Source: a virus (Duplodnaviria > Heunggongvirae > Uroviricota > Caudoviricetes). From it: 20,133 nucleotides of DNA. Shown here in pieces: positions 1 through 17,814 of the stretch. Location: the IMG/VR virus record IMGVR_UViG_2778261637_000004; one strand, written 5' to 3'. The translations under genes were made by a program, and so were the position numbers. Positions within the stretch are counted from its first letter, which is position 1. Each line of letters begins with the position of its first letter. The notes beneath the pieces were generated by a model. The model did not search any database and was not told the origin of the DNA. It saw only the letters and a program-made list of their open reading frames with translations.

Positions 1-837
1 CTATTTCTTCTCTGTAATTTTTACACTGTTTTCCAACTGCTTGATGCTGACCTGCGGGGTCGGCAACTCCTCAGGCATGGTTCCGCCAAGTTCCTGAATG
101 GTTTGCCTCACCTTGCGACCCACGTCAAAGTGTGTGGTGTTAGCTTGCTGTTTTGAATTCACGCCATCCCGCTTGAGTTTTTCTTCTGTTTGGGTAGCTC
201 GAAAGAGATTAGCCGCCAGTTCTGTTGAACCCATATGATCCAGGATCTTCTGACTCTTTTTCAGCCCCTTCCGCTGATGGATGGCTTTCTGATCTAATCC
301 ACCATACAGTCCCCGGTAACCATGATTCTGAAATATGGCGAAATCGATAGCTGTCGCTACCCCAGCTTGCTGCGCTGCCTCAACTAATTGTTTGTTATGT
401 TCTTTCAACTCATTTCTCAGAAAAAGACGCTTTTCGTCTTCACGAAGTTGCCTGAAAGCTTCATCGTCAGCCAGCTCCTGCCGTCGGGTCTGGATAGCAA
501 AATAAGTTTGCCCTGCCGCAATAACCGGTTTCGCAGGGTCGCCGTTTTGTACTACCAGGTAACAGGCATAGCGGGAGAGTACGATGTCTTTTAATGCTCT
601 TTTGGCATTTGAGCCAATTTTGACCATATCGAGGATCTCCTCGAAATGGTCATCAATTGTGTGACCACTATTCAGACAAGCTTCTTTGGCGCGCGTTAAT
701 ACAGGTATAAAGTGACGATACTCTGAATAACCCAGTAGTTTTCCAAGTTGTCTTGCTGACCATTGTTCTGCTCCGTTTGCATTAATCAGCTTTATCTCTT
801 CAAAAGGTTGATGATGTTCGTTCATTGCCCACTCCAT
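1..837 (-). CDS. dinD: DNA damage-inducible protein D (Bro-N domain family)
   Basis: 278-aa ORF with stop codon at 1-3. The protein (MNEHHQPFEEIKLINANGAEQWSARQLGKLLGYSEY...) is recognised from memory as E. coli DinD. A consensus LexA box sits 35-50 bp upstream. The true start is probably the ATG at 825 (MNEHH) rather than 837. Confidence 0.8.
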   Translation of the reverse strand: MEWAMNEHHQPFEEIKLINANGAEQWSARQLGKLLGYSEYRHFIPVLTRAKEACLNSGHTIDDHFEEILDMVKIGSNAKRALKDIVLSRYACYLVVQNGDPAKPVIAAGQTYFAIQTRRQELADDEAFRQLREDEKRLFLRNELKEHNKQLVEAAQQAGVATAIDFAIFQNHGYRGLYGGLDQKAIHQRKGLKKSQKILDHMGSTELAANLFRATQTEEKLKRDGVNSKQQANTTHFDVGRKVRQTIQELGGTMPEELPTPQVSIKQLENSVKITEKK

Positions 838-870
838 GTGATATCGATTGCAAGGAAAGTAAGTTTACAA

Positions 871-886
871 CTGTGTTTATATACAG
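871..886. promoter_or_regulatory. LexA operator (SOS box) in the dinD promoter
   Basis: CTGTGTTTATATACAG matches CTGT-N8-ACAG with an AT-rich spacer, directly upstream of the dinD start. Confidence 0.65.
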
Positions 887-1533
887 TTGTGAGTATCTCA
901 CGTTCTCACTGCGCTGGGCAAAAAAACATCGCAAAATCTGGAGCAGGCACGCAAAACAGAATTGAATGTTGCGGGGAGGAAAAATGCCGCTCTGTTTGAG
1001 TGGGCGGCATTTGTGAAGGCTGAAAAGGAAGAATTGGCGTTACGAGTTATTCTGTTGAATCTGTTTGTAGAGTATTGGCCTCAGTTCCGCATTGTAGCTG
1101 ATTTTTTTCTAATGCGTTTTTTGATTATGTACACCCTTATGTACACGTTTTTTTAAAGCGTTCAGCAATTACGCTGGTGGATGATCACGGATAACCTGAC
1201 ATCTACAGCCGCCTTAAAAAGCTGAACCCGACAAGCATTACTGCGTATCGGGTTCGTTCGCTCTTTCTACTCGTGGCAGATGAGTTTACGGTGTGATTTT
1301 ATCGGGCGAGGGTATTGTATCAGGCATCCCCTTTTCTATGCAGATTTGCATAGTTCCGAATGGTGGCGTTATGGAAGCCTCCCATATCAGCATCATGCCC
1401 ACCAGCGTGAAGTATTTTTTATTTCGCGGGTGTAAAAATTTGACGAGGCGGGCGGTCCCATAAGCAATGGGTTGTAGGGATTTCGATCCCCCCTCCTGAA
1501 TGCAATTTTTCGTATATATATATACAAAACAGT

Positions 1534-1688
1534 GCGGGTTATGCGGGTTACCGGGTTATCTTAGCGTGCTAACTATTTTTTATTCTTTAGTATCAATATG
1601 TTGTAAAATGCACTGTTCATTATTCAAGCATCGCATAACCCGCAAAACATCCCAAATAACCCGCAAACGCCCCAAAATAACCCGCAAA
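1534..1688. repeat. Iteron cluster A: three tandem GCGGGTTAY 9-mers, a ~75 bp AT-rich spacer, then three ATAACCCGCAAA copies at 20-22 bp spacing; putative origin or cis-replication region
   Basis: Tandem copies at 1534-1542, 1543-1551 and 1552-1559 (degenerate). AT-rich spacer 1561-1630. Inverted copies at 1635-1646, 1655-1666 and 1677-1688. No ORF covers the region. Confidence 0.6.
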
Positions 1689-2351
1689 CACATTGCTGAA
1701 AGCAGGGGTGGATAGTTCCACTGGTGCCACAGAACGGCTGAATACGGTAACTGTTGCTGGTGGTCTGTCCTGTTGTCGTTCCAGTCTCATCAAATTGAGA
1801 GGCAAGACAAAGTGCATTTTTGCACTATAGCCAAAGCCTCATAAAACATAGTTACCCCCACAGGTTGGCAAACCATTACCCAACGCAATTAAGTGCGTCA
1901 GAATCGATTACAGCGCGTTCCTGTGGCACGTTGTTGCCGTTCTCAACAGTGAAAGGAGAGCGTAAAAAGCGCATATCTATTACTGTTGAGGGGTGTAGCG
2001 GCATATATCGCGCATATCCACGCCGTTAATCCCGATACCGTCACTGCGCATTGAGATCAACCAGAAGATTAAGATAGTTTTACCTGAAATTATCCAAATA
2101 ATTGTTTTAACTGATTAATTTTTCGAATATCTATTGTTAGGGAATAAATCATCAGATACACCATAAAACGACATCTTTCAGGGTGTAGAAGATGCAAAGC
2201 CGGTACTGAAGAAAAGACAAAGAATATGAATGGCTGGACACACGATGGAAGGATTGTCCATTGAAGGATCAATCCCCATGGTATAAGTATTAATAAAACC
2301 GCGCAGCGGGCTTTTTTATCTGCGGTTTCCCGCCCGGGCGGCGGTGGCATT

Positions 2352-2379
2352 CGTTAAAAACAAGGCCGCGAAAGCGGCC
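2352..2379 (-). terminator. Rho-independent terminator closing the cargo operon
   Basis: GGCCGC-GAAA-GCGGCC hairpin (2364-2379) followed on the minus strand by TTGTTTTT, 10 nt after the stop of the 104-aa gene. Confidence 0.6.
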
Positions 2380-2388
2380 TGTGACATG

Positions 2389-2703
2389 TCACGATAGTTC
2401 CGTTTTGTTGAATTCAATTATATCAAGGTCAGAACTTTCGTAATCCTTACCGAATAAAGCAAAACATATCGCGTCAAGTTCTCTCTTATGTTTGGACGCC
2501 CGATCATAATTACCACCCCAACAGCAAATGAATCCACCAAGTACTGCTGATTCAAAAAGTAATGATGCTGCATCAATATGTCTGAACCAGGAGTCTATAA
2601 GTAAAGCAGAGAGTGATATTAATGTTCCCCACCCGCCAATCCTTCTCCATTTCTCAGCTTCATATTTAAGAGAAGCAATATATTCAATTTTATCTCTCGT
2701 CAT
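2389..2703 (-). CDS. Small predicted membrane protein (104 aa, two hydrophobic segments), AT-rich; last gene of the cargo operon
   Basis: Its ATG overlaps the stop of the upstream 925-aa gene (TGATG), indicating translational coupling. Hydrophobic stretches IGGWGTLISLSALLIDSWF and ASLLFESAVLGGFICCWGG. About 38% GC against a GC-rich neighbourhood. Confidence 0.6.
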   Translation of the reverse strand: MTRDKIEYIASLKYEAEKWRRIGGWGTLISLSALLIDSWFRHIDAASLLFESAVLGGFICCWGGNYDRASKHKRELDAICFALFGKDYESSDLDIIEFNKTELS

Positions 2704-5480
2704 CAGTTCCCCACCGCCTTTCCAAAATCCGGTGCTCTACGTGGCGCAATAGCACCCGGTTCCCACCAACTCGTTATGTCGAACTCCCGTTGCGCGCGGT
2801 CCCTTACTCGATCATTGTAACCAGGGTTTGCCATCTCCTGAAGTTGTTGCAATATCAGGTGATTGGTTATCGCTTTCGCATACCACAGGTTTGCGAATGG
2901 AGTGATCATGCGGGCTGTTTTCAGTGCATCGGCACCGAATGATGTTTCTTCACCCTGTAGAGCCTTCTGTGGGTTAGTAATCAGTAATTTTGTTAACTGC
3001 TCTGCAAAGCTCAACACAGGGCCACCCATAGTGGCACCGATGCTGGAGCCATATTGCGTATGGTCCTGGAAAATAAAATCACCGTAGATACCGAACGAAC
3101 CACCTTTCAGTAGAGCCTGAACCCATGTGGTTGGTTTTGTCATATCCAGCGGGTCATTACCATTTAACAAACTGTTCATCTGGATCGCAAACATACCAGC
3201 AAGAGTTGTTCCCCCGATATATGAGGCCAGAAATTTAATGGCCGGAACGGTGTCCAAATCCCGTGTTCTGTTAACAAGTTGCCGAAATCCAGCAAATGGG
3301 GTTGTTTTGAAGAGCATGAAGCTCTTCATTAACTCGCCAGCATCATCACGGGCATATGTATCAATACCCGTAGCGGTGGTCACAGCATTGGTCATCTCAC
3401 CGTGCGTAATTCCCAGCAATTTCTGGGCTGCTTCAGCGCGTGCATTACGAATCATGCGCGTGATGGTCTGCTCAGCCTCAGCGTCGAATGCTTCTTTCAT
3501 CCGTTTCAGGCGTTCTGGAGGGAGATCTCCAAGGGCTGCCAGTGCCTTTTCACTCCCGGCACGAATCCGGGCAATACGGTCTGCCATAATGTCGGCGATT
3601 ACGTTATCGGGCACAGCGTAAATCGCGTCTGGCGTCATCCCCATATGCCCGGCAGTAGTCATCGGCCTGAGTTCTGCCGCTGCCATGATGGCCCAGTCCT
3701 CATTGCTCCATCCCTTGTTAGCCAGAATGGTTTTATCGGTTCCTTTTATATCGTCCAGCGTCTTAAATTTTCTGGTCAGCTCGCCAATATTTTTGTACAT
3801 CAGGAGACCAAACGACGCTTTGTTTGCGCGGTCCATAGCGATCAGCCCGGACCACTTCAGTGTCTTCTCTGCGAACCAGCCAGTTATGCCGCGAGACAAG
3901 TCAAACCCGCCCATTTTCGAAACCACAGCAGCATGTGAATCCACCAGCAGACCGAGTTCAGCATTCGCCTTTTTGGCATCTCCACTAAACAGGTTTTTGA
4001 TAGTGTTAACGGAAAGCCGCATTCCACCACGGGTAAAGCCCAGCGCCTGCGCATTTGCCCGCATAATTGCCTGGTCGCTGGTTGCTGTCAGTACGCTGGT
4101 GCCAAGCATGGCGCTGGTCATCAGGTTACGCAGACCACCAACTGCTGAAGAGAACACACTCGATGAAGCGACACCATTTAGGCCAGCCATTGAGTTGAAC
4201 ATACGGGCAACTAATTTGGCCTCATCCTCCATTTCTTTTTTGCGTTTCCCGCCTGTTACTGCGCGCTTATAGATGCGATCCAGTACCAGGGAAAAGTTTC
4301 TTTCGGCGTCCGGACCAAAGGCTTTAACGACGCCCAAATCCCTGGATGATGATTGCAGGTGCGACATCATCACCCCCACCAGCGGCTGCTGAGTGTATCG
4401 CTCCATATAGGCGAAGTGTGACTGCGCATCCTTGAACGCCATCACCCTGTGCTGAGAACCACGGCTCTTTATTCCTCCGGCTCCCATAAATGTACCAGGC
4501 TCAATTTTGTTTGCCCCATCAGTGGCCTTCGTTTCAAAGATCGCTTCCAGTGCCTGACGGTACTCGACGTCATTCATAATGCTGCCGTCAGGATTAACGT
4601 AATTGCTGCGATCCTGCGTGTTGTAAGCGTCATCAACCCATTTCTGGCGGGCAAACTCAATCGGTGGCTGGCGACCTGAAAGACGTGCTGTAGCTTGCTC
4701 TGCCACTGGTAACGATGCCAGCCATTCTTCGCGCCCGGCATTGCGAATAAGGTCAGCATCATCCACATATGGCGTATGCCAGTCTTCTCGCAGGCCTATG
4801 TCAAAGCCGTTGTCGTTCATCTCATGACGAACACGGCCTGTTACATCCTTCCAAATCTGTGCAATTTTCTTCGCCAGGGGATTACCGGTATCTTCGCCAT
4901 AAATTTCTTTCAGGATCTGGAGTTGTGCAGACTTTGCCGCCTGCCTGTCGAATACACTCCGAAACCGCTGCTCTCCAAGCGCCCTGCTCTGCTCGAAGAA
5001 TTTGCGGACGTCATCACCTGCTTTTAGAAGTTCAGCACTGAGCTGACGGGACCAGTCCTGATATGCCCCAATTGCAAGCTCTTCAGCAGAAGTAACGGAG
5101 ATATCAGCTTTGTCTCTCGATCGTCGGCCAGCAAAAATAAACTGCTGCAAATTAACAGGTGTCTGCTGATCAGGCGGGATGTTAGCATCGAGAGTGTCAG
5201 TAATTTTACTGATGGCGATCGCATTCTGGGCAACACGCTGTCTTTTCTTGTACACATCATGAACCACACGCTGGCGTACCAGTTCTGCTGCATCCATGTA
5301 TGTTTGAGCATCAGGAATACCACTTTTGCCTTCTTTTGCATTCTTTCTGTGCACATGCTGCACAGCTTCTTTGATACGATCTTCAATATTTTTCAGCTCA
5401 TCAGCCTTTGGCTGGCGACCAAGTGTCTGCGCAATAGCTTCAACACATGCCTGTTTCATTATGGGTTCCTCAAGAAGCAC
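2703..5480 (-). CDS. Large hypothetical protein (~918-925 aa), Gly/Ala/Ser/Thr-rich with hydrophobic glycine-rich segments; cargo operon gene 3
   Basis: Long uninterrupted ORF. The track start is a GTG at 5480; the more likely start is the ATG at 5459 (MKQACVEAIAQ) preceded by GAGGAA. No Walker A or other recognisable catalytic motif. Segments such as GTSVLTATSDQAIMRANAQALGFTRGGM and GGTTLAGMFAIQMNSLLNG resemble phage structural or ejection-protein composition. Confidence 0.85.
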   Translation of the reverse strand: MLLEEPIMKQACVEAIAQTLGRQPKADELKNIEDRIKEAVQHVHRKNAKEGKSGIPDAQTYMDAAELVRQRVVHDVYKKRQRVAQNAIAISKITDTLDANIPPDQQTPVNLQQFIFAGRRSRDKADISVTSAEELAIGAYQDWSRQLSAELLKAGDDVRKFFEQSRALGEQRFRSVFDRQAAKSAQLQILKEIYGEDTGNPLAKKIAQIWKDVTGRVRHEMNDNGFDIGLREDWHTPYVDDADLIRNAGREEWLASLPVAEQATARLSGRQPPIEFARQKWVDDAYNTQDRSNYVNPDGSIMNDVEYRQALEAIFETKATDGANKIEPGTFMGAGGIKSRGSQHRVMAFKDAQSHFAYMERYTQQPLVGVMMSHLQSSSRDLGVVKAFGPDAERNFSLVLDRIYKRAVTGGKRKKEMEDEAKLVARMFNSMAGLNGVASSSVFSSAVGGLRNLMTSAMLGTSVLTATSDQAIMRANAQALGFTRGGMRLSVNTIKNLFSGDAKKANAELGLLVDSHAAVVSKMGGFDLSRGITGWFAEKTLKWSGLIAMDRANKASFGLLMYKNIGELTRKFKTLDDIKGTDKTILANKGWSNEDWAIMAAAELRPMTTAGHMGMTPDAIYAVPDNVIADIMADRIARIRAGSEKALAALGDLPPERLKRMKEAFDAEAEQTITRMIRNARAEAAQKLLGITHGEMTNAVTTATGIDTYARDDAGELMKSFMLFKTTPFAGFRQLVNRTRDLDTVPAIKFLASYIGGTTLAGMFAIQMNSLLNGNDPLDMTKPTTWVQALLKGGSFGIYGDFIFQDHTQYGSSIGATMGGPVLSFAEQLTKLLITNPQKALQGEETSFGADALKTARMITPFANLWYAKAITNHLILQQLQEMANPGYNDRVRDRAQREFDITSWWEPGAIAPRRAPDFGKAVGN

Positions 5481-5487
5481 GCTGCCG

Positions 5488-7512
5488 CTACAGAATAAAC
5501 CTTCGATTCGTTCTGGACTGTCTTAATCTGTTCATCCAACTCAGCCAGGAGATCAGAAAGTTTTGTCGGGTTTCCGGGTGAGCTATAGTCAGCTCAGGAT
5601 TGGCAACAGCCATGTCCCTGGCAGCCATAAGGTCATAGCTGTTGGATGAGAGAACCTGCCCTGTATCTGGATCAACGCTGACGTCCCCTCTGTGTTCACC
5701 AGCCGATGAGAAAGCACTTTCAGCACGAGGGACAGGCGATTCACTAATTGGCTCTGATGATGTTTCATATCTGACACCATTTTCTTCAAAAACCTTTTGT
5801 ATTTCATGGTATTGCTCTTGGTAAGTATCAGATGTATCTGATCGCAATGGACCATCAAGCCCTCGCGCCATCCCCCCAACATTTACAGGCTGACCATCAT
5901 TAAGTTGCCTGTATGCTTCATCCATGGCGTCAACATGGCTGTTGATGCTCTCATTGCTGGTGTGAAGCACTGGTGACGATTCAATATCGTAATGAAGCCC
6001 CTCATTCAAAATGTGGGCTGCATCAATATCGCTTGGTTTTATTCTTTCCCTCGCCCGGATACCAAAAACTTTTTCTACTGCGGCTTCCAGTTTCATATTG
6101 CGAAGACGCATACTTACGAGTAACCGTAACTGCTCAGGTGTAACGGTTCCAACCTGAATACCACTGTATCTGAATATATAGGCTTTAAAACCTGAAATAA
6201 TTTTTTCCCATGACGAAACGCTTGTCTTTAGAGATGGATTTACTGCATGTGCGGCAACTTCTTCAGCGTATAACCACTCAGGATATGTTTCAGGGTACTC
6301 ACCCCTTTTCTTATATTCATAATATTGTGACATCCCATATGCAAATTCAGGATAGTCAGAATGCTTGTTTGCAGATTTAAGTACAGCATTAGCTAGCTTT
6401 CTGGCCTTCCAGTCAGGGTAATGGCGCTGCTCAAGATGAAGCGCCTCATGATGAAGGGTTTCTAACAGTTCTTCATGGTCTTTTAATCCATTAATATTTA
6501 TTCTTATTATTGGTTCTTTTCCAGAAGCTACTGTCACATGACCTTTATTCAGAAGTATTTCTCCATCACTATTTTTTATTGCTGGTTCATTAATAAGTTC
6601 TATTACTCCTGAATCAGATAAATCACGAACCATTGACTCAATGTTACCATCAGGAGATTGCTGATAATGTTCACCAAAAGTTGATTTTATTTCTTCTGCA
6701 GAAATGTTCGACTCTGTACCATCATGGTTATTATGGGTAGTCAGGTGATGAACGCCACCAAAGACCCCGCCTAAAACGGCATCGACTAACATCGCCTGAC
6801 CGTCAAATACCCGGTACTGTTTTGCCATCTCCGTGTAGCCTTTTTCCTCCAGTGTTGCACCGACAGAGTAACGGTTCAGTCCACCGAATCCGGTGTTGAT
6901 TGCCACACCTGAGGCAATGCGCGTTGCCAGTGTGGTGCCGACGGCAGCGGGTAAGGCCATACCCACAGCATTGAAAAGGCTCTGCTGCGTTGCCAGGTTA
7001 CGCGCCGTAGCCTCATCTACTCCCTTCCCTTTAAAATCCTGATAGGACTGCTCATACGTAGAACCGAAGGCTGTAGCAGCGCCGATGAGTGGGCCGCCAA
7101 ACATAGTTGTTCCGATTGCAGGAACAAATTTACCAAGCTCATTTAATACCTCAGCCGCCATTCCCTGGCTGCCTGCATCAGGCTTCACATAGCTGCGGGC
7201 ATCCTGTAACTGTTTTCCGATCGTGTCGTATGTATCATTCAGTGTTTTGTCAGCATCAGGGAACATCTCCCGAAAAATATTAACAGTCGGTGCCACGTCT
7301 GCGGTAAATGCCGGATCGCTAATCAGGCGCTTGCTGAATCCGACGGCAGACTGCGCGAGACCGAGAGCCCCCTCCGCTACGCCGCTCAAAAGTGCAGTAC
7401 CTGAACCCTGGAAGGGAGTCGGATCGTAGTCTTCTGGCCTTGCTGGGTTGGCAACTGTTTTGTCGTCAATCCATGCCTGACCTTCTGGAGCCAAAGAAAA
7501 AACATCAGACAT
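5488..7512 (-). CDS. Large hypothetical protein (674 aa) with an embedded AT-rich segment carrying an HExxH(x4)H zincin-like motif; cargo operon gene 2
   Basis: Its ATG overlaps the stop of the 843-aa gene (TAATG). HEALHLEQRH occupies residues 355-364 (nt ~6421-6450). Roughly nt 6170-6760 are 27-35% GC, against about 55-60% in the flanking parts of the same gene. Confidence 0.85.
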   Translation of the reverse strand: MSDVFSLAPEGQAWIDDKTVANPARPEDYDPTPFQGSGTALLSGVAEGALGLAQSAVGFSKRLISDPAFTADVAPTVNIFREMFPDADKTLNDTYDTIGKQLQDARSYVKPDAGSQGMAAEVLNELGKFVPAIGTTMFGGPLIGAATAFGSTYEQSYQDFKGKGVDEATARNLATQQSLFNAVGMALPAAVGTTLATRIASGVAINTGFGGLNRYSVGATLEEKGYTEMAKQYRVFDGQAMLVDAVLGGVFGGVHHLTTHNNHDGTESNISAEEIKSTFGEHYQQSPDGNIESMVRDLSDSGVIELINEPAIKNSDGEILLNKGHVTVASGKEPIIRININGLKDHEELLETLHHEALHLEQRHYPDWKARKLANAVLKSANKHSDYPEFAYGMSQYYEYKKRGEYPETYPEWLYAEEVAAHAVNPSLKTSVSSWEKIISGFKAYIFRYSGIQVGTVTPEQLRLLVSMRLRNMKLEAAVEKVFGIRARERIKPSDIDAAHILNEGLHYDIESSPVLHTSNESINSHVDAMDEAYRQLNDGQPVNVGGMARGLDGPLRSDTSDTYQEQYHEIQKVFEENGVRYETSSEPISESPVPRAESAFSSAGEHRGDVSVDPDTGQVLSSNSYDLMAARDMAVANPELTIAHPETRQNFLISWLSWMNRLRQSRTNRRFIL

Positions 7513-10043
7513 TATTCAACCCTCACGACAATAGCTTTATTGGTTCTGGGATCTGTTGCCCAGCGTCCGCTACCATTTACAAGCCGATACCGGTTATTGC
7601 CGATATTAACTGGCGTGAAATTTGACACTGCATTTACGTTAAGTCCGGCATCTTTCAGTGCTTGTTTCGCAGATGTGGTATAGCGATCTTTGAAAGTAGA
7701 TTTATCCATGCCGAAAGGCATTACAACGTCGCCGCCATTAAAACCATTGTATATACCGCCAGTAGCATACTTCACGGCATCAGCTACAATGTCTGTATCA
7801 GGCATACTGGTTCTTACCGTAGATGCATCACCAGATTGATAAGCTATTCCTGCATAAGCGGCTTTGAAAAGGCTATAACTGATCTGGCGTAACTGCGGGT
7901 TACGGGCAAATGCATTACCTACCTGTTCGTCGAAAGCGTCTTTCATCTTATCTTCGCTCGGCAACTGTACCGGAGTTATGCCCGCATTCTTCATGGCCTT
8001 CGTCGGATTCAGTAGTTGGTCGCCGGAAAGAATAACCTTTGCAACGTCGTACTTGTTCATCGTCGGCTTATACCCGATGAACTGACTATATGGGATCGTC
8101 GGCTTGGTGTTGTCGTACTGGTTATCCGGCGTGCCCAGCAGCAGCGCAGAATAGGCTGTTGCCGCACTGTTCGGAGCAATTACAGATGCCACCTGCCGTA
8201 TTGCTGGCGCAGGCAGCTTCTCCCCCATGCTCTGCAACAGTTTAATTGTCTGGTCAACGTTCTGAGTGCCGCGCACCTGCTGTGCCAGCGCAGCCGCCTC
8301 TTCACTGTTGAGGATTGGGGCATTAATTCCCAACGCGCGTAAGCTTTCCTGCGACGAGAAACGGTTAGCCACCTCGGCAGTGATGTCGTCAGGGTTGTTG
8401 CTGGTGATCGGCTTATAGGCTCCGATTTCCACCGCTGCACTAAACGGATTATTCTGCCTCTGGGTTATTACCTTCGTGGCTGCCGCCGATACCCGGTCGA
8501 ATAACTCCGCACGAGACGCATACCCCTCCCCTGTTTCACCAGTATCCGGGCGCAATTGCTCAACATATGCGGTAATGCTGCTTGTCGGCATGTTGCGGAA
8601 AGAGCCTATATACTGTCCGGCGATCTGCAAATTTCTGAACTCGATATATCGCAGGTTTCCTTCTCTGACACCATAAGCTGCAATGAACTCATCCTCACCA
8701 GGTGGGTTAGGAAATTCAACGCCACGCATAAACGCAGCCGTTGCATCGCGAACCCTGCTATCGAGCATCGTTCTATATTCAGCCTGCTGCTGTCTGGCTA
8801 ATGCATCCGTCTGTCGCAACACGCTGGCCTGATCTGATTCACTTAAAGCATCGAACCAGGCTACACCGGTATAACGTTTATTTTTTGTCGGTAGCTGAGA
8901 AAGCCCCAGTGCGGCACTAACGCCAGCGGCCAATTGCTGATCACTGTACGGCTGACTGCCTTGCTCATGATGAATAATTGCTTTGCACAGAGATTTCAGT
9001 GTGTCAGGATTTGATGCGTCAAGCGGCTGGTCAGGAGTTACACCGAGCTGAGCACATACTGCCCGTATATAAGCATCAGTTTTATTATCATCACTGGCCG
9101 GTGCCCAGCGATTAATTATTTCGCTGATGGTGTCATAACCCTGACGCTGATACGACAGCAAATTGCGACCAAGCGCGCGAATACCGTGTTCAGGGGTTTC
9201 GAATTTGGCAAAGCGACCATCATCACCAGTCTGCCCAACCCACGGATTAGTTTTGCTGTATTCAAGATTGCCGGGGTTATTGTTGCGTATACCGCGGGTA
9301 CGATCGGAAGAGCCACTATCTGCTACAGCACGGCGAGATCCAGCAGCAGTATCGCTTAACTCTCCGTTTTGCTGTCTTACCTGAAGATAGTTTGCTCCAA
9401 TAGCATTTTGAGCAGTTGCTTTTGCTGTTGCTTCTTTAAACTCGATTTTCTTGGCCTGGATTTGCTCGTCGCTCCAGCCATGCGCAATACCGTAATCCTC
9501 AATTTGCTGGAAAGTTTGCGTATTAGCCAATATGTATGCTGCGTTGTTGCCATATAATGCTGAGGCATTTTTACCATTATTCAGCAGTGTCGCCTGAAAC
9601 TGGCCTTCTTCGTAGGCATTTATTTGCCCTATCTCGTACCTCCCGGCCTGCGTAGCGAACTGAATACGCTGCTGCTGCGCCTGCTGCATGAAAGCATTAC
9701 GAGCCTGTTCATCCGGCAGCGACATAGCCAGTTGTTCGACCTGAGCATCAAACTGCTGTGTATACTCATGGCCTTTTCCAATAGCATTTTTCCCTTTCAG
9801 ATTAAGCAATCCTGTTTCAGGATTATTCAGCAGATCACTGCCTGTCTGACTGAGTTTAAGGGATGCCTCCTGAACCAAGGCAATATTGGCGCGCTGTTTT
9901 GCCTGACCAAGAACATCAATTGCCTCTGTCCCTGCCCGAACAAAAGCATCACCAATACCTGGCTGAGAAAACGTCTGCAAGCCTGCTGACTGAACTCCAC
10001 GGCTCTCAACCTGACGTCCGGATACTGTTGGTACGACTGGCAT
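7512..10043 (-). CDS. Large hypothetical protein (843 aa), Gln/Ala-rich N-terminal region and a conserved-looking GIRNNNPGNLEYS...RWAP block; cargo operon gene 1
   Basis: Long ORF with ATG at 10043 and an AGGGGG Shine-Dalgarno upstream. The block at residues 251-315 (nt ~9099-9293) looks like a conserved domain core. GKNAIGKG is not a canonical Walker A. Confidence 0.85.
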   Translation of the reverse strand: MPVVPTVSGRQVESRGVQSAGLQTFSQPGIGDAFVRAGTEAIDVLGQAKQRANIALVQEASLKLSQTGSDLLNNPETGLLNLKGKNAIGKGHEYTQQFDAQVEQLAMSLPDEQARNAFMQQAQQQRIQFATQAGRYEIGQINAYEEGQFQATLLNNGKNASALYGNNAAYILANTQTFQQIEDYGIAHGWSDEQIQAKKIEFKEATAKATAQNAIGANYLQVRQQNGELSDTAAGSRRAVADSGSSDRTRGIRNNNPGNLEYSKTNPWVGQTGDDGRFAKFETPEHGIRALGRNLLSYQRQGYDTISEIINRWAPASDDNKTDAYIRAVCAQLGVTPDQPLDASNPDTLKSLCKAIIHHEQGSQPYSDQQLAAGVSAALGLSQLPTKNKRYTGVAWFDALSESDQASVLRQTDALARQQQAEYRTMLDSRVRDATAAFMRGVEFPNPPGEDEFIAAYGVREGNLRYIEFRNLQIAGQYIGSFRNMPTSSITAYVEQLRPDTGETGEGYASRAELFDRVSAAATKVITQRQNNPFSAAVEIGAYKPITSNNPDDITAEVANRFSSQESLRALGINAPILNSEEAAALAQQVRGTQNVDQTIKLLQSMGEKLPAPAIRQVASVIAPNSAATAYSALLLGTPDNQYDNTKPTIPYSQFIGYKPTMNKYDVAKVILSGDQLLNPTKAMKNAGITPVQLPSEDKMKDAFDEQVGNAFARNPQLRQISYSLFKAAYAGIAYQSGDASTVRTSMPDTDIVADAVKYATGGIYNGFNGGDVVMPFGMDKSTFKDRYTTSAKQALKDAGLNVNAVSNFTPVNIGNNRYRLVNGSGRWATDPRTNKAIVVRVE

Positions 10044-10139
10044 CAGTAACCCCCTGTTTTGAATCGTGTACCAGAATTCATAAAACCTGATTTAAATAAC
10101 ATTGGCGTCCCTCCGCTTTGATGCTGTACCAGCGATTCA

Positions 10140-10346
10140 TTACTCACCCCCCGATGCAAAACCATTCTGATTAAGCCAGGCGTTTACGGCATGTCTGACA
10201 ATCTGCGCCACGCCTGGTAATGGCTGATCAGGGTGATTGTTCACATGGTCGATTCTGTACTGCTTAAGGCGCATCACGGTCTGTGCATCCAGATGAACGG
10301 AACCACCTCTGACATCGCCTGTGTTCAGGTCATTAATACAATTCAC
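10140..10346 (-). CDS. Small protein (68 aa), possible ribbon-helix-helix-type regulator heading the cargo operon
   Basis: GTG start at 10346 preceded by a strong AAGAGGAAA Shine-Dalgarno. The beta-strand/helix/helix pattern (SVHLDAQTVMRLKQYRIDH...VAQIVRHAVNAWL) is consistent with an RHH fold but is unverified. Confidence 0.55.
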   Translation of the reverse strand: MNCINDLNTGDVRGGSVHLDAQTVMRLKQYRIDHVNNHPDQPLPGVAQIVRHAVNAWLNQNGFASGGE

Positions 10347-10447
10347 AGCAATTTCCTCTTACTGACTAAACTATGCACATTATCGATCGAAAAAAGTGGT
10401 AGATAAACATATTTCTATCATAAAAACAGATTGATTGAGTTCAGATC

Positions 10448-10472
10448 CAAAAAAAGCCGGATTGCTCCGGCT
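10448..10472 (-). terminator. Strong Rho-independent terminator between the replication operon and the cargo operon
   Basis: On the minus strand: AGCCGGA-GCAA-TCCGGCT hairpin followed by seven T residues. Confidence 0.7.
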
Positions 10473-10478
10473 CTGTGC

Positions 10479-10628
10479 TTACTTCTGGTAGTTACGCCAT
10501 ACTGATTTCCCGATCCCATCTATCCCCATTTCTTTTTCAGTGCGTTTAAGCGACCGTTTCAGGTCTTCTAAATTATCCGGTTGCTTCGGTGGCCTCTGTG
10601 CCTTCCTGGAACATTCCAGTCGTCGCAT
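10479..10628 (-). CDS. Small basic ORF (49 aa) below the ORF-track threshold
   Basis: Hand translation gives MRRLECSRKAQRPPKQPDNLEDLKRSLKRTEKEMGIDGIGKSVWRNYQK. The stop lies 7 nt before the terminator hairpin. The ribosome-binding site is weak. Confidence 0.3.
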   Translation of the reverse strand: MRRLECSRKAQRPPKQPDNLEDLKRSLKRTEKEMGIDGIGKSVWRNYQK

Positions 10629-10712
10629 TGATATGTAATACCGTTCCTTGTCAGTTCCCCAACTGCATTACTTCACCCCATCGCGCCGCCGCTCTTCGAT
10701 ACAGGGTTTTAG

Positions 10713-11129
10713 TTAGCCTCCGGCTCTTCCGTAGCGCTGTTCTGGTGGATTCACATAGCCCCTTTCTTGCAGGTATTCGCGAATATCAGACATCAGGAGA
10801 CGGTTAACCGTGCTCCTGTCTTTTCTCTGGTAAAGGCGTCTGGTGATCATGAAGTAGTTAGCAATGACCTCCGGTATATCCCTGACGCTGATACATGCTG
10901 TATGCTGGTCAATAGCTTCAATCATCTCTTCACGAGTTACAAAAGTCTGGCGTAAACGAGTGATCACACCATGTACATCTGAATGATCATTTATACGCTT
11001 ATTTTGGCGCTTCGCGCTCTCGACTGTGACACTGACAACAATGTCAACTCTTTGTTTCTCCGCCATTTCATCCACAATGTGATCACCTGCACGGCGACCA
11101 TGTGCGTGATCATTTCTTACTATTTCCAT
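10713..11129 (-). CDS. Hypothetical protein (138 aa), last large gene of the replication operon
   Basis: ORF with GGAGGAG upstream of the ATG at 11129; overlaps the end of the FinO/ProQ gene by 20 nt. No recognisable motif. Confidence 0.55.
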
Positions 11130-11607
11130 TCATCTCCTCCAGTAGTTTTCCTGCGTGCATCTGTTGTAGTGGTGTTACCTCGCCGCACGGCTGGCCTTTC
11201 AGGTCGTAACGCGCGCCACCAGCTACCAGGGCGCGGTAATAGCGCGGAGTCTGCACATAACGCGCCAGCGTTGCGCGTAGTGTTCCCTGTCCGAGTGAAA
11301 TACCTCTCGCGGCAATATCCTGTATCAGGTCGTCAAATATCCCCACCTTAAGCGGCTTAGGTGATTCCGGGCTGAATAATTCAGGCCATAGCTCAATAAG
11401 ACGGTTAACGCGTCTGCGGTTTTTACGCTGCCGTTTGGTCATACGCCGCCGCGGTGTTTCTCCTGTGAGCTTCTGCTGTGTGTTCTGGTTATCTGGCATC
11501 ACTTTATGCGCCGATGTGGTTTTATTCTGCTGCTGAGCCGCCTGTGCTGTTTTCTGCGGCGTGCCGTAAATGCCCTTCGGTTTTCTGTTTATGGTCAGCT
11601 TTGTCAT
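11110..11607 (-). CDS. FinO/ProQ-family RNA-binding protein
   Basis: Basic N-terminal region ([14 protein letters not shown]) followed by [30 protein letters not shown]...[39 protein letters not shown], matching the ProQ/FinO domain signature (PLKIGI..DL...RY...R.DL.G.PCGE). Confidence 0.75.
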
Positions 11608-11643
11608 GCCTTCCCCTGTAATTACTCTGTTCGCTGTTGTGAA

Positions 11644-12069
11644 TTAAAACGGTATCCCGTCCCCGTACGGATCATCGTGCTGGCCTGTCTGTTGCTGTGC
11701 CCTGTTCAGTGCATCAGTAGCCTGCCCCTGCTGGCCTTTTTTGCCGCCCGGTCGCGCCGTTCGCGCACTGATTACGCTGTCTGCGATAACCTGCCATCCC
11801 TGCCTCGTTTCGCCGTTCTGGCCCGTCCACCGGCTCACCTGCATGTTACCGGCCACGCTCACCAGTTCGCCTTTGTGGTGTTTTGCCAGTGCGTCAGCCT
11901 GTCTGCCAAACGCCAGGACGGATAACCACATCGTCGCCGTTCCGTCATCTGCCTGATTGCATGGAAGAGGGACCGCCATACTCGCCATCGCCATTTGTGT
12001 GCCCTTGCTGGTGGTCTTTAACTGCGGGTCAGCCACCAGCCGCCCGTAAGCTGATATTTGCGCCGTCAT
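11644..12069 (-). CDS. ssb: Single-stranded DNA-binding protein (SSB family, mobile-element type)
   Basis: 141 aa; OB-fold-like N-terminus, a Gly/Gln-rich linker and a C-terminal acidic tip ending DDPYGDGIPF (canonical SSB ends DDDIPF). Confidence 0.8.
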   Translation of the reverse strand: MTAQISAYGRLVADPQLKTTSKGTQMAMASMAVPLPCNQADDGTATMWLSVLAFGRQADALAKHHKGELVSVAGNMQVSRWTGQNGETRQGWQVIADSVISARTARPGGKKGQQGQATDALNRAQQQTGQHDDPYGDGIPF

Positions 12070-12132
12070 GCTGTTTGTTCTCCGGTTTTAACGTGATAGT
12101 TACGCTTGTTTACACTCTTACAGTGAAATTTT

Positions 12133-12255
12133 GCGGGTTACAATCGCACATTTGCGGGTTATAACTGCTGTTTTGCGGGTTACGTGCGGGTTATTGATTT
12201 CCTTTTTAATCATGCAGTTAATTAACTTATGCACAGGATAACCCGCATAACCCGC
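12133..12255. repeat. Iteron cluster B: four GCGGGTTAY copies (21 bp spacing), a ~43 bp AT-rich spacer, then two tandem ATAACCCGC 9-mers; putative origin
   Basis: Copies at 12133-12141, 12154-12162, 12175-12183 and 12186-12194; inverted tandem copies at 12238-12246 and 12247-12255. Sits in the 210 bp gap between the primase stop and the ssb start. The arrangement is the reverse complement of cluster A. Confidence 0.6.
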
Positions 12256-12279
12256 AACTTTTTACCTCACACAGGGAAG

Positions 12280-14406
12280 TTAATCTTCTGCTTCAGGCTG
12301 GAACATCAGCACGTAAAAAATATGCTGCTTCCCGCCAATCCTGCCGAGCGCCTTTTTCTTGTAACGGCGGTCGCCTCCCGCTTCCAGCATTCCGGCAGCA
12401 CTCAACGCGCGGGCAAAGTGAGACGGATTAAATCCCTGTGCGATCTCCCCCTCAAACACATGCGGAAACGTGTAAAAACGGAACTCATCATCTTCATTTC
12501 TGATACTCCCCTTTCTGTATCCGGCAAGGTCTTTAATCGGTAAATCACGCTCATCGCTGTTTGGATAAGGAAGGTATCGACTGAACCCGAACGACGACAA
12601 AAACGCCTCAGCCTGTTCAACCATCTGTTTAAATTCCCTGTTGCCCGTGCCGAATTCCTTCACCCAGGCATTAAAGTTATGCTGAACTGCATCACGGCAC
12701 GCCTGAACATCCCAGCCTGTAACATGACCGGAAAGCACAAGCGCGGCCTCCAGTACGGCGAATCTTTCCCCCACGCGGTGAACCTGCTCGCCGTAGCTCT
12801 CCGGTATCAGGTTGCGCCACCGCTCGCGACATGCCCTTACCGCGTCCTTTGCCTCCTGCTGGTGGCCTGCCAGCCATTTAACCCACTCACGACCTGCCGC
12901 CCCGTGATTTTCTGTCCAGGCATCTTTTAACGCGTCTGCGTGCGCCTTTCCGGTGCTGTATTCGTGAAACTGCGAGGCCTTTTCCATCGGCACGTTAAGC
13001 AGACGGACAAGCTGCCCCGCTTTAATTTTTATCCCTTCCGTTTTGAGGAATGTTTCAACGTCCATTTCTCCGGTGCTGATTGCCACCGTGCGCCAGTGTT
13101 TTATCTCCCTGTTGCCGCCGTCCTTCGCCCCCTGTAATTTCCCGGAACCGTTAAACAGCGTATAGGCTGACGTGGACACCTCCCGCGCGTTTCCGGCCTG
13201 GCCTATTTCATCCAGGGGTAACAGCCCGTCATTATGTGCTTCGGCCTCGTTGGCGATACCTAACGCCGTTCCGTACCAGGTCAGCCGTTGCGCGTCCGGC
13301 TCTCCCCATAAACTTGATGCAATGTTCTGTGTGGTGGTTTTACCTGCTGATGATTGCTCAAAAAGATGAACCCCGAAGCCGTCAGCACCCACCAGCCCGA
13401 TTAATGGTGCGGATAGCGATACCGCCACACCCAGCATCATGGACGGATTACCACCAGCCAGCCGCGCCACGGTATCGCGCCAGCCCTCCGCTGTTCCCGC
13501 CACGGAATAGCCATTAACTGCGGCAGTTTTTCCGGTAAACAGGATGGGTTTCTCTGATTCACCAATGACCGAACCATCCGGCATGATGTACGCACCAAAA
13601 TGCCAGCCCGTTGTAGTGCTTAGCTGCCATTCCTCATGACTTCCGCTTAACTGCATCCAGTCAGCCAGGATGGCTCTGTATTTGCCGTTGGTCGTCACGT
13701 TAAGACCGTGGTCTTTCAGCAACCGCCAGCCGTCACGGTCACCAATGCCTCCGCACGGGACCGCCATTGTAATGACCTCATGGTTTGCTGGTTTTTTCCA
13801 GCGCATCACGCGGTAATGCTCTTTGCCGATTGTTCCTGTTCCCAGTAGTTCAAGCGGAGAACATAACCACGTCTCAGGCCGGATAATTTCGCCTGACTGC
13901 TTGTCCACTTTGGGCGTTACCCAGAAAACACCATCGACGCGACTTTCAACACGAGGCTTTAATTCGTCATCATAATTTCCGGTGAAATTTGTCTTTGCCG
14001 GAAGGTTGATCACCAGACTGTTACCGCGTTCCGCATCATCCTTCAGTCCAGCCATGCGCGGTGTCCAGTCCTCCGGCTGCTGGTCAACAAAGCTGCGGTA
14101 GCAACGCGCCTCCTTCACACCCGCCACTGCAAGCAGTGTCGCTATCTGTGTAAGGTGCTGCTCTGATATTTCACCAGCACGATAAACGCGCACGTAATAG
14201 CGCCCTTTGTCGATGATTTGCGTGTCTGCCAGACTCGCCAGTTGTTCCGGTCCAAGAATAACTGGATGTGTATCATCTGCCGCAATATGCTTTCCGGCCC
14301 ATTCGCTCCACTCTTTCGCATGTGCCCAGGCATCACTACCCGCAAAGATAATCACCTCCGTCATTTTGTCTTTCGGCTGGTGCTTTAAATTCGGTGCGCG
14401 TTTCAT
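12280..14406 (-). CDS. Replication initiator: primase/helicase-type protein with a P-loop NTPase domain
   Basis: 708 aa. Walker A-like LFEQSSAGKTTTQ and an acidic LLPLDEIG stretch (Walker B-like). ATGA start/stop overlap with the upstream 100-aa gene. Sits beside the iterons and ssb, as in P4-alpha-like and PICI replicons. Confidence 0.8.
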   Translation of the reverse strand: MKRAPNLKHQPKDKMTEVIIFAGSDAWAHAKEWSEWAGKHIAADDTHPVILGPEQLASLADTQIIDKGRYYVRVYRAGEISEQHLTQIATLLAVAGVKEARCYRSFVDQQPEDWTPRMAGLKDDAERGNSLVINLPAKTNFTGNYDDELKPRVESRVDGVFWVTPKVDKQSGEIIRPETWLCSPLELLGTGTIGKEHYRVMRWKKPANHEVITMAVPCGGIGDRDGWRLLKDHGLNVTTNGKYRAILADWMQLSGSHEEWQLSTTTGWHFGAYIMPDGSVIGESEKPILFTGKTAAVNGYSVAGTAEGWRDTVARLAGGNPSMMLGVAVSLSAPLIGLVGADGFGVHLFEQSSAGKTTTQNIASSLWGEPDAQRLTWYGTALGIANEAEAHNDGLLPLDEIGQAGNAREVSTSAYTLFNGSGKLQGAKDGGNREIKHWRTVAISTGEMDVETFLKTEGIKIKAGQLVRLLNVPMEKASQFHEYSTGKAHADALKDAWTENHGAAGREWVKWLAGHQQEAKDAVRACRERWRNLIPESYGEQVHRVGERFAVLEAALVLSGHVTGWDVQACRDAVQHNFNAWVKEFGTGNREFKQMVEQAEAFLSSFGFSRYLPYPNSDERDLPIKDLAGYRKGSIRNEDDEFRFYTFPHVFEGEIAQGFNPSHFARALSAAGMLEAGGDRRYKKKALGRIGGKQHIFYVLMFQPEAED

Positions 14407-14705
14407 TTCTTGCCCCTGAATGCGTTAATCATGTTCTTTATTACCTGAATATTTGCCCGTGCTTTCTCTTTACTGGTGGGCTTACTGCGTGGTGCTGCAC
14501 ATACCAGTGAAAAATCACGCCGGAACTGATGAACGGGCATCACACAGTCATAGTCGTACCCTGCGCGGCGGTATGTAATGTGCCGTTCATACACGGAATT
14601 AATAACCACGATGTCGCCATATTTATCCCGGAAAATATCCCCGATCCTGATTTTCGGGTGAGTCTGTCCGCTGGCATTTAAGCCAGTAAATTTAATCTTC
14701 TTCAT
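14403..14705 (-). CDS. Hypothetical protein (100 aa), translationally coupled to the primase gene
   Basis: ATGA overlap with the primase start; 2-nt gap from the upstream 85-aa gene. Confidence 0.6.
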   Translation of the reverse strand: MKKIKFTGLNASGQTHPKIRIGDIFRDKYGDIVVINSVYERHITYRRAGYDYDCVMPVHQFRRDFSLVCAAPRSKPTSKEKARANIQVIKNMINAFRGKK

Positions 14706-14707
14706 GT

Positions 14708-14965
14708 TTATTTCCCGGTGTGGGGTTCTTCTTTATATTTATGGGCTAACAAATCTGGTAATTGCCTGTATTTATCCTCGGCAATATATTCAGAATAATC
14801 GACAGCACTGTTCAGTATATCTAACGCCGTTTCATGCTCCAGATTCGAAACTATAAGGAACGTTGCTACTTTTAGCATATTCGCGATATGCAAAAGAGCA
14901 TCAATTTCATTTTTTGGCGCTTCGCTGAATTTTTGCTCCAGAAGAATAAATCGTTCATCACGCAT
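14708..14965 (-). CDS. Hypothetical protein (85 aa)
   Basis: ATG at 14965 preceded by AGGAGGA; acidic, helical-looking sequence. Confidence 0.6.
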   Translation of the reverse strand: MRDERFILLEQKFSEAPKNEIDALLHIANMLKVATFLIVSNLEHETALDILNSAVDYSEYIAEDKYRQLPDLLAHKYKEEPHTGK

Positions 14966-15161
14966 AGTGTTCCTCCTGACGGATGCGGGCAGTAAATACC
15001 ATCACGCAGCCAGCCGGGGATTGCTGACGGGCTTCCTGTTCGCTGGTGGCCACGATGTGAATCACGCGCGGTTGTGCCGTACTCAGGGCGATAAAACGCC
15101 AGATGTATTTATTCAGGTTGTGCGAGTCCCGCCCTTGCGGGTGTGTGGTATGATTTCTCAT
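14958..15161 (-). CDS. Hypothetical small protein (67 aa), first gene of the leftward replication operon
   Basis: This is the C-terminal 67 codons of the 415-aa track ORF, starting at an ATG (15161) with GAGGT upstream; it overlaps the next gene by 8 nt. The rest of the 415-aa ORF conflicts with a well-supported plus-strand gene. Confidence 0.45.
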   Translation of the reverse strand: MRNHTTHPQGRDSHNLNKYIWRFIALSTAQPRVIHIVATSEQEARQQSPAGCVMVFTARIRQEEHYA

Positions 15162-15257
15162 AGCTACCTCGATACTTCTGCTATCGTTGGTGGTTAGAAG
15201 CCCGGTTAGTGTTAGCGCACTGCCGGGTTTCGTCGTTTCTGCACCTTGCATCAACAA

Positions 15258-15336
15258 GGTGTAAGTAACTTTATTTATAGGTGGCTTACATGTCAATGCT
15301 TTTATGTAAGACTTTTTATGTGTATATTGTCTTACA
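15258..15336. promoter_or_regulatory. Divergent promoter/operator region with nested inverted repeats
   Basis: GTGTAAG (15258-15264) pairs with CTTACAC (15330-15336), and CTTACAT (15284-15290) with ATGTAAG (15303-15309). TATATT -10-like element at 15322-15327. Lies between the leftward replication operon and the rightward RHH-like gene. Confidence 0.45.
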
Positions 15337-15357
15337 CTTTCGTTAAGAGGATTACAG

Positions 15358-15663
15358 ATGGCTACAGGTTCAAAAAACGCAAAATCACAATCGCTGACAG
15401 CTCGGATCCCGCATGATGTTATTGAAGGCATGGAATCCGTAAAACTGGACGGCGAAAGCAACGCCGGATTCATAGTAACCGCCATGCGTGGTGAGATCGC
15501 CCGCCGCCAGGCAGAAGGAAGCGGAGAAAATCCCCTCGTGTCTTCACTGGATGCCTTAGTTAAGGTCGAACAAATCGGCATCAAGGCAGCGGAGGAAATC
15601 GGGCAACTCGTAGCCGTCGCTCGTGAAGAACTCCAGCGCCGGGAGGCCAAAGAGCAGGAATAG
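15358..15663 (+). CDS. Small DNA-binding protein, ribbon-helix-helix-like (MobC/CopG-like); candidate island regulator
   Basis: ATG preceded by AAGAGGA. SLTARIPHDVIEGMESVKLDGESNAGFIVTAMRGEIARR is consistent with an RHH N-terminus followed by a helical C-terminal region. Confidence 0.6.
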   Translation: MATGSKNAKSQSLTARIPHDVIEGMESVKLDGESNAGFIVTAMRGEIARRQAEGSGENPLVSSLDALVKVEQIGIKAAEEIGQLVAVAREELQRREAKEQE

Positions 15664-15720
15664 CCACTATCAGCGCCATAGTTTGAGGAACGCAGGCGCA
15701 TTGCTTTACAGGGCAGCACC

Positions 15721-15900
15721 ATGAGCGACACAGAATCAACAAAAACACCATCACCAACTCGTAAGAGACGACGCAAAAATATAGCGCATGAACATGAATC
15801 AGAAAGATTCGCACCTTGTTCGTTTGCTCTTGAGAAATTCCTTAAAGAGCACAGGAAAAAGCTCTCGTTGCAAACCCTGGAACGAACCAAATCTGACTGA
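15721..15900 (+). CDS. Small basic protein (59 aa), not in the ORF track
   Basis: Hand translation gives MSDTESTKTPSPTRKRRRKNIAHEHESERFAPCSFALEKFLKEHRKKLSLQTLERTKSD. Followed by a plus-strand terminator; the ribosome-binding site is weak. Confidence 0.35.
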   Translation: MSDTESTKTPSPTRKRRRKNIAHEHESERFAPCSFALEKFLKEHRKKLSLQTLERTKSD

Positions 15901-15967
15901 TCACATTGCCCACCAGCTGCAAATCTGGCATTGTTGGCGATGCGTTTGATTTCCTTTGTTCCCACTG

Positions 15968-15995
15968 GCGACCTCTCCCGGTCGCCTTTGTTTTG
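15968..15995 (+). terminator. Rho-independent terminator for the rightward small operon
   Basis: GGCGACC-TCTCCC-GGTCGCC hairpin followed by TTTGTTTT. Confidence 0.6.
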
Positions 15996-16044
15996 CCAGT
16001 TATCCAGCAACGGGGCGCTTTTTCTTTCTGTAACGTTCGGATCG

Positions 16045-17419: not shown

Positions 17420-17496
17420 AAAAACTCCGCTATCGAATTAAGTTACTTTTTATTTGCTGGTGGATAGCTGGAGGCAAAAGCCCCATTGCTATTTAA

Positions 17497-17703: not shown

Positions 17704-17814
17704 GTTCCCATAGCTCCTGTTGATAGCGGTTGACGTTACGGGAACAAATTTAGCGATTTGATAGGTGATGGATAAGGCACACTAGTTCTACTGTGCCTGT
17801 ATAGTTAAGTCACT

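Follow-up and report, generated by a model that had tools for sequence, protein, structure and literature searches.

Internal virion proteins (IVPs) are packed in the head of podoviruses and leave it before the DNA does, passing into the envelope of the cell. The subject of this study is a gene for a predicted protein of this kind, homologous to gp16 of Salmonella phage epsilon15, in whose middle an AT-rich cassette encodes an additional domain with an HExxH motif. The gene lies in a stretch of 20,133 nucleotides recorded as a virus of the class Caudoviricetes (IMG/VR record IMGVR_UViG_2778261637_000004; hereafter the window, by which we mean the whole stretch that was analysed). Two groups of proteins are among the described systems closest to it. 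IVPs are known to host guest domains (Hardies et al. 2016, PMC4819975), and ejection proteins show the same mosaic modularity (Swanson et al. 2022, PMC8954989); the examples include the lytic transglycosylase of T7 gp16, the virion RNA polymerase of N4 in an IVP-D homologue and the methylase site in H66 gp60 (PMC4819975, PMC8954989). For epsilon15, gp13 has been assigned to IVP-A, gp14 to IVP-B and gp17 to IVP-D, with gp15 and gp16 as the candidates for IVP-C (Hardies et al. 2016, PMC4819975). The second group comprises the polyvalent proteins, in which zincin-like metallopeptidases (MPTases) are the commonest domain (Iyer et al. 2017, PMC5512222). The zincin core was described there as an N-terminal helix, a three-stranded sheet, the helix with HExxH and a second helix with a Glu, with variable inserts between the helices, and the role proposed for the MPTase domains was self-processing or attack on host proteins.

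The gene described here shares features with both groups. As in the podovirus IVPs, a conserved ejection scaffold carries an unrelated domain that is swapped between related phages; however, unlike the known cases, the host is an epsilon15 gp16 (IVP-C-type) protein, and the guest is a putative peptidase and not a muralytic or nucleic-acid enzyme. No description of a guest domain in epsilon15 gp16 was found in the literature searched. As in the MPTases of polyvalent proteins (PMC5512222), a predicted HExxH helix is followed by a later Glu-bearing helix with variable inserts between them, and the domain sits in a protein that is probably delivered with the invading DNA. In contrast to those MPTases, which are one of 2-15 domains in proteins of thousands of residues, the cassette is the sole guest domain in a protein of 686 amino acids (aa) in its usual form, and its clade could not be linked to any of the twelve MPTase clades of PMC5512222 or to a zincin of solved structure. 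That virion proteins which are injected can carry guest domains is already known; what is new is the host protein, the undescribed domain family and the satellite-like carrier.

The open reading frame (ORF) at 5488-7512 (minus strand) encodes 674 aa, and its usual allele encodes 686 aa. A tblastn comparison with epsilon15 gp16 (NP_848224) gave 81% identity over residues 1-257 and 491-655, leaving the middle unmatched, and the protein matched phrog_1145 with an E-value of 2.4e-118. The database protein WP_021513188 is 99% identical to the window protein over residues 1-648. As in epsilon15, the gene is placed between homologues of gp15 and gp17, and the order gp15-gp16-gp17 is formed by three large co-directional ORFs in PHROG virion-protein families. 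The gp15 homologue (7512-10043, minus strand, 843 aa) is an internal virion protein with a transglycosylase-like region, matching phrog_992 (E 1.4e-288) and also phrog_7182, 'tail injection transglycosylase'; the gp17 homologue (2703-5459, minus strand, 918 aa; phrog_684, E 1.8e-295) is of the IVP-D type. By homology and gene order, therefore, the 674-aa gene is predicted to encode an epsilon15 gp16-type internal virion (ejection) protein. It differs from epsilon15 gp16 in the middle, which in epsilon15 is a GC-rich segment of 181 aa without HExxH, and in its location on an island without head or tail genes. The sequence-only reading of the window had overlooked that the gene is that of a phage ejection protein on a satellite-like island, and these two circumstances decide how the cassette domain would be used.

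A protein search in Enterobacteriaceae retrieved 421 homologues, which by length form three classes (about 521, about 630 and 686-690 aa). When 13 of them were aligned, residues 1-257 (6742-7512, minus strand) and residues 491 to the end (in-frame part to residue 648, 5569-6042, minus strand) were almost invariant, and the middle occurred in three states: a 68-aa Pro/Ala-rich linker; the 181-aa GC-rich segment found in epsilon15, in which a Pro/Ala-rich stretch is followed by a Gln/Arg/Leu-rich one; and the 233-aa HExxH cassette. The cassette-free classes, with middles of 68 and 181 aa, occur in complete epsilon15-like prophages. These results show that the N-terminal 257 residues and the C-terminal residues (about 196) form a conserved scaffold and that the region between them is a permissive slot. 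The N-terminal part is Gly/Ala-rich with a hydrophobicity peak around residues 178-197, and no other part of the protein is shared with its more distant podophage relatives, which come from phages of Pseudomonas, Liberibacter and Yersinia and from phiV10. The proposal of an exchangeable domain grafted into a conserved scaffold, made from the sequence alone, is borne out by the invariant flanks and by the replacement of the middle with the linker or the 181-aa segment, as well as by relatives of the cassette itself in unrelated giant phage proteins (see below). The further comparison with polymorphic effectors holds for the variable domain on a constant scaffold, but not for a partner, as no adjacent small gene co-varies with the cassette. 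When the same region of the gp16 relatives of phiV10, Pseudomonas phage Shamal and epsilon15 was searched for Pfam domains, none was recognised, and guest domains of known Pfam families in these relatives were rejected. As a permissive site for guest domains, this middle region of epsilon15 gp16-type ejection proteins is new.

The ORF is intact and encloses the AT-rich segment. DNA homology to epsilon15-type prophages and to epsilon15 itself ends at 6043 and restarts at 6742, and the cassette is therefore placed at 6043-6741 (minus strand; 699 bp, 233 aa, residues 258-490) and not at residues 254-447 or so, as had been read before. Its GC content is 0.382 and its GC content at third codon positions (GC3) is 0.258, compared with 0.533 and 0.510 in the N-terminal flank (residues 1-257) and 0.473 and 0.392 in the C-terminal flank (residues 491-648); the contrast is sharpest at the third codon positions. 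The other two types of middle in gp16 homologues have a GC content of 0.57-0.63. The low GC3, set against the N-terminal flank and the GC-rich alternative middles, shows that the cassette is foreign and was horizontally acquired. The AT-rich island noticed in the sequence-only reading is thus real, although milder and slightly displaced: the interval 6170-6760 given for it has a GC content of 0.372 (the lowest 1.7% of 590-bp windows, with 48.3% for the whole window), the minimum over 200-bp windows is 0.305 and not the 27% given as the lower end of the dip, and neither flank reaches the 55-60% ascribed to it. The peptides cited there are present, namely HEALHLEQRH at residues 355-364 and the Tyr/Glu-rich stretch YPEFAYGMSQYYEYKKRGEYPETYPEW. 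Direct or inverted repeats were looked for at the cassette borders and none were found, and a transposition-like insertion was rejected on this ground.

The relatives of the cassette were found in much larger proteins. When the cassette alone was compared with PHROGs, both of its lineages (for the second, see below) matched phrog_10089, 'DarB-like antirestriction' (E 2.1e-4 and 8.4e-3), in the same region of the profile (positions about 3416-3612 of 4647). With a relaxed threshold, tblastn matched the cassette to about 50 phage records (E down to 2e-3), including Ralstonia phages (Gervaisevirus), Serratia phage Parlo, Klebsiella phage ZX1, Ochrobactrum phage POI1126 and Pseudomonas phage Itty13; where the matched record has a named product, the protein has 3,200-4,800 aa, and in every extracted region an HExxH lies 59-66 residues upstream of the matched block. 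We aligned the two gp16 cassettes with six DarB-like segments, the other sequences being 23-28% identical to the cassette. The eight sequences were co-linear, with the invariant positions L..D.G, DG, HExxH, W, EE..A.A (E160, E161, A164 and A166 in the numbering of the cassette), W, K, G.Q.G.(V/I)TP.QLR and R. The HExxH residues of the window protein, H355-E356-A357-L358-H359, are encoded at 6436-6450 (minus strand). The invariant EE, which contains the candidate third metal ligand, belongs to E416-E417-V-A-A-H421 (6250-6267, minus strand), within a predicted helix and at a distance of 57-58 residues from H359 on its C-terminal side; family-wide, the distance from HExxH to the EE of this second helix is 57-66 residues. 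A comparison of the two cassettes with the six DarB-like segments by hhalign gave a probability of 97.6% and an E-value of 2.7e-12 over 166 columns, with HExxH on HExxH. A hidden Markov model (HMM) built from the six foreign segments alone scored 34.6 and 30.9 bits on the two gp16 lineages, compared with 6.0 for the best of 5000 shuffles, and had no match in cassette-free gp16 proteins.

The architecture of the giant proteins was examined with Pfam. Parlo gp81 contains SLT, helicase, methyltransferase and LPD39 domains, GP4 gp68 contains SLT, LPD3 and LPD38 domains, and in both the HExxH domain lies between the Pfam domains in a stretch without a Pfam family. Their genes end an internal-virion-protein module and come after an acyltransferase (IVP-A-like) gene. 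By their Pfam content, the giant DarB-like proteins are polyvalent proteins as defined by Iyer et al. (PMC5512222). Taken together, these sequence comparisons show the cassette to be a member of an undescribed domain family, whose other members lie inside giant DarB-like polyvalent virion proteins of Ralstonia, Serratia, Klebsiella, Ochrobactrum and Pseudomonas podophages. Note that in the Itty13 record (NC_070969.1) the open frame with the HExxH domain (positions 1-2185 of the record) exceeds 728 aa and runs in the other direction than the annotated gp01 (161-4849); either the wrong strand was annotated or a giant gene is split by the record ends.

The structure of the domain was predicted with two AlphaFold models, based on alignments of three and two sequences, which had low confidence (pLDDT 47 and 59, respectively). 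The predicted order is an N-terminal helix, short strands, the HExxH helix, two variable helices, the helix with EEVAAH and further helices. HExxH is placed in the helix at 92-108 in model 1 and in the helix at 61-77 in model 2, and the region before it consists of a helix and three strands in model 1 and of a helix, two clear strands and two short bridges in model 2. This predicted order of elements is compatible with the zincin core of PMC5512222. The HExxH(x4)H motif proposed in the sequence-only reading did not survive the comparison with homologues, as its third His, H364, is Asn in the second cassette lineage and varies in distant homologues. A metzincin or other three-His site (HExxHxxGxxH or x4-H) was rejected, since the third His is not conserved and there is no Gly at +3.

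The cassette was found in 37 of 5426 complete E. coli genomes, with one copy per genome and always within a gp16-type gene. No close similarity to it was found in 50,697 phage records, 46 of which match the gp16 homologue (0/46 in the cassette region), and none was found in the GTDB species representatives. Scans of IMG/VR and JGI metagenomes returned the same E. coli allele alone, and phmmer with residues 254-480 against 1.84 billion representatives gave a single match, a 74-aa fragment of the same protein. A second lineage was found in protein P0003 on the Logan contig L009, in which the cassette is 60% identical, LHHEALHLEQR is retained and gp13/gp14 are upstream. Between the two cassette lineages the dN/dS ratio is about 0.12, with dS saturated. 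Alleles of the cassette among the islands differ by 3-6 synonymous and 0 non-synonymous changes; in the same comparisons gp15, the gp16 scaffold and gp17 have pN/pS ratios of 0.03-0.28, where there were enough changes for an estimate. The low dN/dS ratio and the synonymous-only differences indicate that the cassette is a maintained coding sequence and not debris. Many of the island carriers are from poultry or human urine, some being named as extraintestinal or avian pathogenic E. coli (ExPEC XM, APEC O2:K1:H7), and others are from swine, wastewater and human faeces. These sources hint at a lineage-restricted distribution of the island.

The window is a complete island of about 19 kb, extending from dinD (1-837) to a tyrosine integrase (18865-20133, minus strand; Pfam Arm-DNA-bind_3, Phage_int_M and Phage_integrase) that adjoins yicC, and the dinD/yicC genome context was seen in strain M21170. 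From the integrase, the order is a small ORF, a helix-turn-helix (HTH) regulator, Rha, AntA/B, Bro-N, an Icd-like gene, DUF4222, a DUF927 primase/helicase (12280-14406, minus strand; PF06048, E 1.7e-46; phrog_1139, 'DNA primase'), SSB, ProQ/FinO, a PerC-like gene, gp15-gp16-gp17 and a small variable ORF. None of the capsid, portal, terminase, tail and lysis genes was found on the island, nor were gp13 and gp14 (IVP-A and IVP-B); in full prophages and in the second cassette lineage, IVP-A (acetyltransferase), IVP-B (T7 gp14 family) and tail genes precede gp16. A variant of the island has a different integrase module at tRNA-Gly, adjoining the ETT2 type III secretion genes. Two integrase modules at two chromosomal sites point to an element that is mobile, modular and satellite-like, and not to a prophage in decay. 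The island resembles the phage-inducible chromosomal islands (PICIs) and P4-like satellites in its integrase, small HTH regulator, Rha/AntA/Bro-N, Icd-like and DUF927 primase genes and in the lack of capsid, portal, terminase and tail genes, but differs from them in carrying 7.3 kb of ejection-protein genes; no published description of satellites with ejection-protein genes was found. The gene content and the integrase modules thus point to a satellite-like element, with an integrative mobilizable element as the alternative. No match to P4 psu/delta/sid or to the PICI packaging-redirection families was found in the Pfam scans or in the PHROG scan of nine ORFs (2090-14406), which is a weak negative, the regulatory ORFs at 14403-18771 having been scanned against Pfam and some of them against PADLOC, but not against PHROG.

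From its homology to the conserved HExxH...EE domain of polyvalent virion proteins we assign the cassette domain as a putative zincin-like metallopeptidase, which is the best reading available. The explanation that we consider probable for the whole gene is that of an ejection protein with an acquired cassette, whose domain would be a zincin-like metallopeptidase delivered with the DNA and cutting ejection proteins or a host protein. In this scheme, zinc would be bound by H355, H359 and either E416 or E417, with E356 as the general base. The domain would be carried into the recipient cell as part of gp16 during DNA injection, and inside the cell it would cut gp16 or the partner ejection proteins (self-processing) or a host envelope or defence protein. 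The metalloprotease domain suggested in the sequence-only reading is accordingly plausible: neither HExxH nor the EE downstream of it varies among the homologues, and the predicted order of helices and strands is compatible with the zincin core, but no zincin family was reached by sequence or by fold. Several results weigh against our explanation. Searches of Pfam, NCBIfam and PDB sequences were empty for the cassette alone and for the two- and eight-sequence profiles; one DarB-like member gave WLM at an E-value of 0.18, with no known zincin family matched; and fold searches with the poor models yielded no zincin, helical-bundle matches alone and nothing interpretable. Because no link to an established zincin was obtained by sequence or structure, 'metallopeptidase' is used here as an inferred term. 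HExxH arises by chance in 5.1% of shuffles of the cassette's own composition, and the motif carries weight because it is invariant across all eight aligned homologues. In addition, the window allele is frameshifted in its last 38 codons (see below), and on an island without gp13/gp14, head and tail genes the entry of this gp16 copy into a virion is in question. The lack of a zincin match and the helical-bundle matches would also suit a non-catalytic structural or binding module, either a largely helical spacer, which would give the trans-envelope channel another length or other contacts, or a domain that binds a host factor, in which the conserved His and Glu would hold a structural metal or be a relic; the other two states of the slot, without HExxH or a match to a known family, indicate that non-enzymatic fillers are tolerated. 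However, HExxH and EE form the invariant core of the eight sequences, whose identity to the cassette is otherwise 23-28%; this pattern is typical of a catalytic site, and the surroundings of HExxH are the best-conserved part of the cassette between its two lineages. We regard a non-catalytic module as rather improbable.

The role of the whole set of ejection proteins on the island was also considered. We propose, tentatively and with the odds against it, that the dinD-yicC/tRNA-Gly island is a satellite with its own DNA-delivery proteins, which would use the heads and tails of epsilon15-like helpers and load its own gp15-gp16-gp17, one of which would bring a protease domain taken over from polyvalent anti-restriction proteins. 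If this is true, it is the satellite that determines the way into the recipient cells and the means of disarming them, and not the helper. The absence from the island of every other virion gene, including IVP-A and IVP-B, could instead mean that gp15-gp16-gp17 are not for infectious particles, and that they are expressed from the resident island to interfere, as decoys or poison subunits, with incoming epsilon15-like phages, with the HExxH domain degrading the ejection proteins of the invader. In favour of this, the three genes are under purifying selection (by the pN/pS ratios given above), and none of the 5426 genomes carries both the island and an epsilon15-like prophage; but with 37 and 8 carriers only about 0.05 co-occurrences are expected, so that their absence is uninformative. 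Moreover, PADLOC gave no match for gp15, gp16 or gp17, and gp13/gp14 lie upstream of the cassette-bearing gene in the second lineage, the arrangement of a real phage, which makes the interference explanation unlikely. Finally, the cassette might form an effector-immunity pair of the polymorphic-toxin type with the membrane protein encoded by the 104-aa ORF after gp17 (2389-2703, minus strand), the two having been acquired together. The sequence-only reading had described this ORF correctly as AT-rich (GC 0.378, GC3 0.286); it has two hydrophobic segments and shares one operon and a low GC3 (0.29, compared with 0.26) with the cassette. Its distribution, however, does not follow that of the cassette: 29 genomes hold the 104-aa gene, compared with 37 for the cassette; in the island variant of M21170, which has the cassette, a different ORF of 113 aa takes this position; prophage EC25 has an 85%-identical copy of the 104-aa gene after gp17, behind a cassette-free gp16 of the 636-aa class; and in the second cassette lineage an unrelated ORF of 112 aa is found at this place. 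The 104-aa ORF was rejected as a co-acquired partner or immunity factor on this mismatch, and we consider such a pair very improbable indeed.

The explanation of the cassette as a putative metallopeptidase in an ejection protein has consequences for several lines of study. No Pfam, NCBIfam or solved-structure family covers the cassette, which therefore represents an undescribed domain family, and the gene adds a new and compact case to a way, already known, of arming the phage proteins that are injected with the DNA. The giant polyvalent proteins are unwieldy and the role of their HExxH is debated (PMC5512222), whereas here the HExxH domain stands alone in a 686-aa E. coli protein, which makes it a tractable model. 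The natural alleles of gp16 differ essentially by the presence, absence or replacement of the domain, and the second lineage at 60% identity is available for comparison. If the island proves to be a satellite, it would be the first, as far as the literature searched shows, to encode its own ejection proteins.

The window copy of gp16 has an out-of-frame tail (residues 649-674; 5488-5568, minus strand). At 5562-5575 (minus strand, codons about 646-650) it has a single 7-bp CCGGAAA, whereas all other alleles examined carry two copies in tandem, CCGGAAACCGGAAA. The loss of one copy shifts the frame after residue 648, so that the last 38 codons of the normal 686-aa protein are frameshifted and the ORF of the window is 12 codons shorter and ends with 26 wrong residues. 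The listed E. coli genome matches all cover 2032 bp for the query of 2025 bp. Either slippage in this particular strain or an error of the assembly could account for the loss. In the normal gene the stop codon overlaps the start of gp17, and the window allele is uncoupled from this start. Translation of gp17 probably begins with the ATG at 5459, while the GTG at 5480 is simply the first in-frame start codon (of a 925-aa ORF), and the gene is annotated with 2757 nt in two other island loci that were compared.

The position after gp17 is a second variable slot, which is not specific to the cassette and is occupied by a different small ORF in each lineage (47, 63, 64, 104, 112 or 113 aa). The ORF after gp17 in phiV10 is annotated as a two-helix membrane protein, and that of EP91B is visibly hydrophobic. 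PADLOC gave no defence-family match for the 104-aa ORF. At the other end of the island, a 318-aa ORF (17815-18771, minus strand) adjoining the integrase is AT-rich like the cassette (GC 0.374) and had no Pfam or PADLOC match; in the tRNA-Gly variant, which has a different module, roughly the same place beside the integrase is taken by a gene annotated as 'bZIP transcription factor'. The 318-aa ORF may be a cargo or hotspot gene. The AntA/AntB-type 274-aa ORF (16595-17419, minus strand) has a C-terminal match to the PADLOC candidate defence family PDC-S22 (E 1.6e-10).

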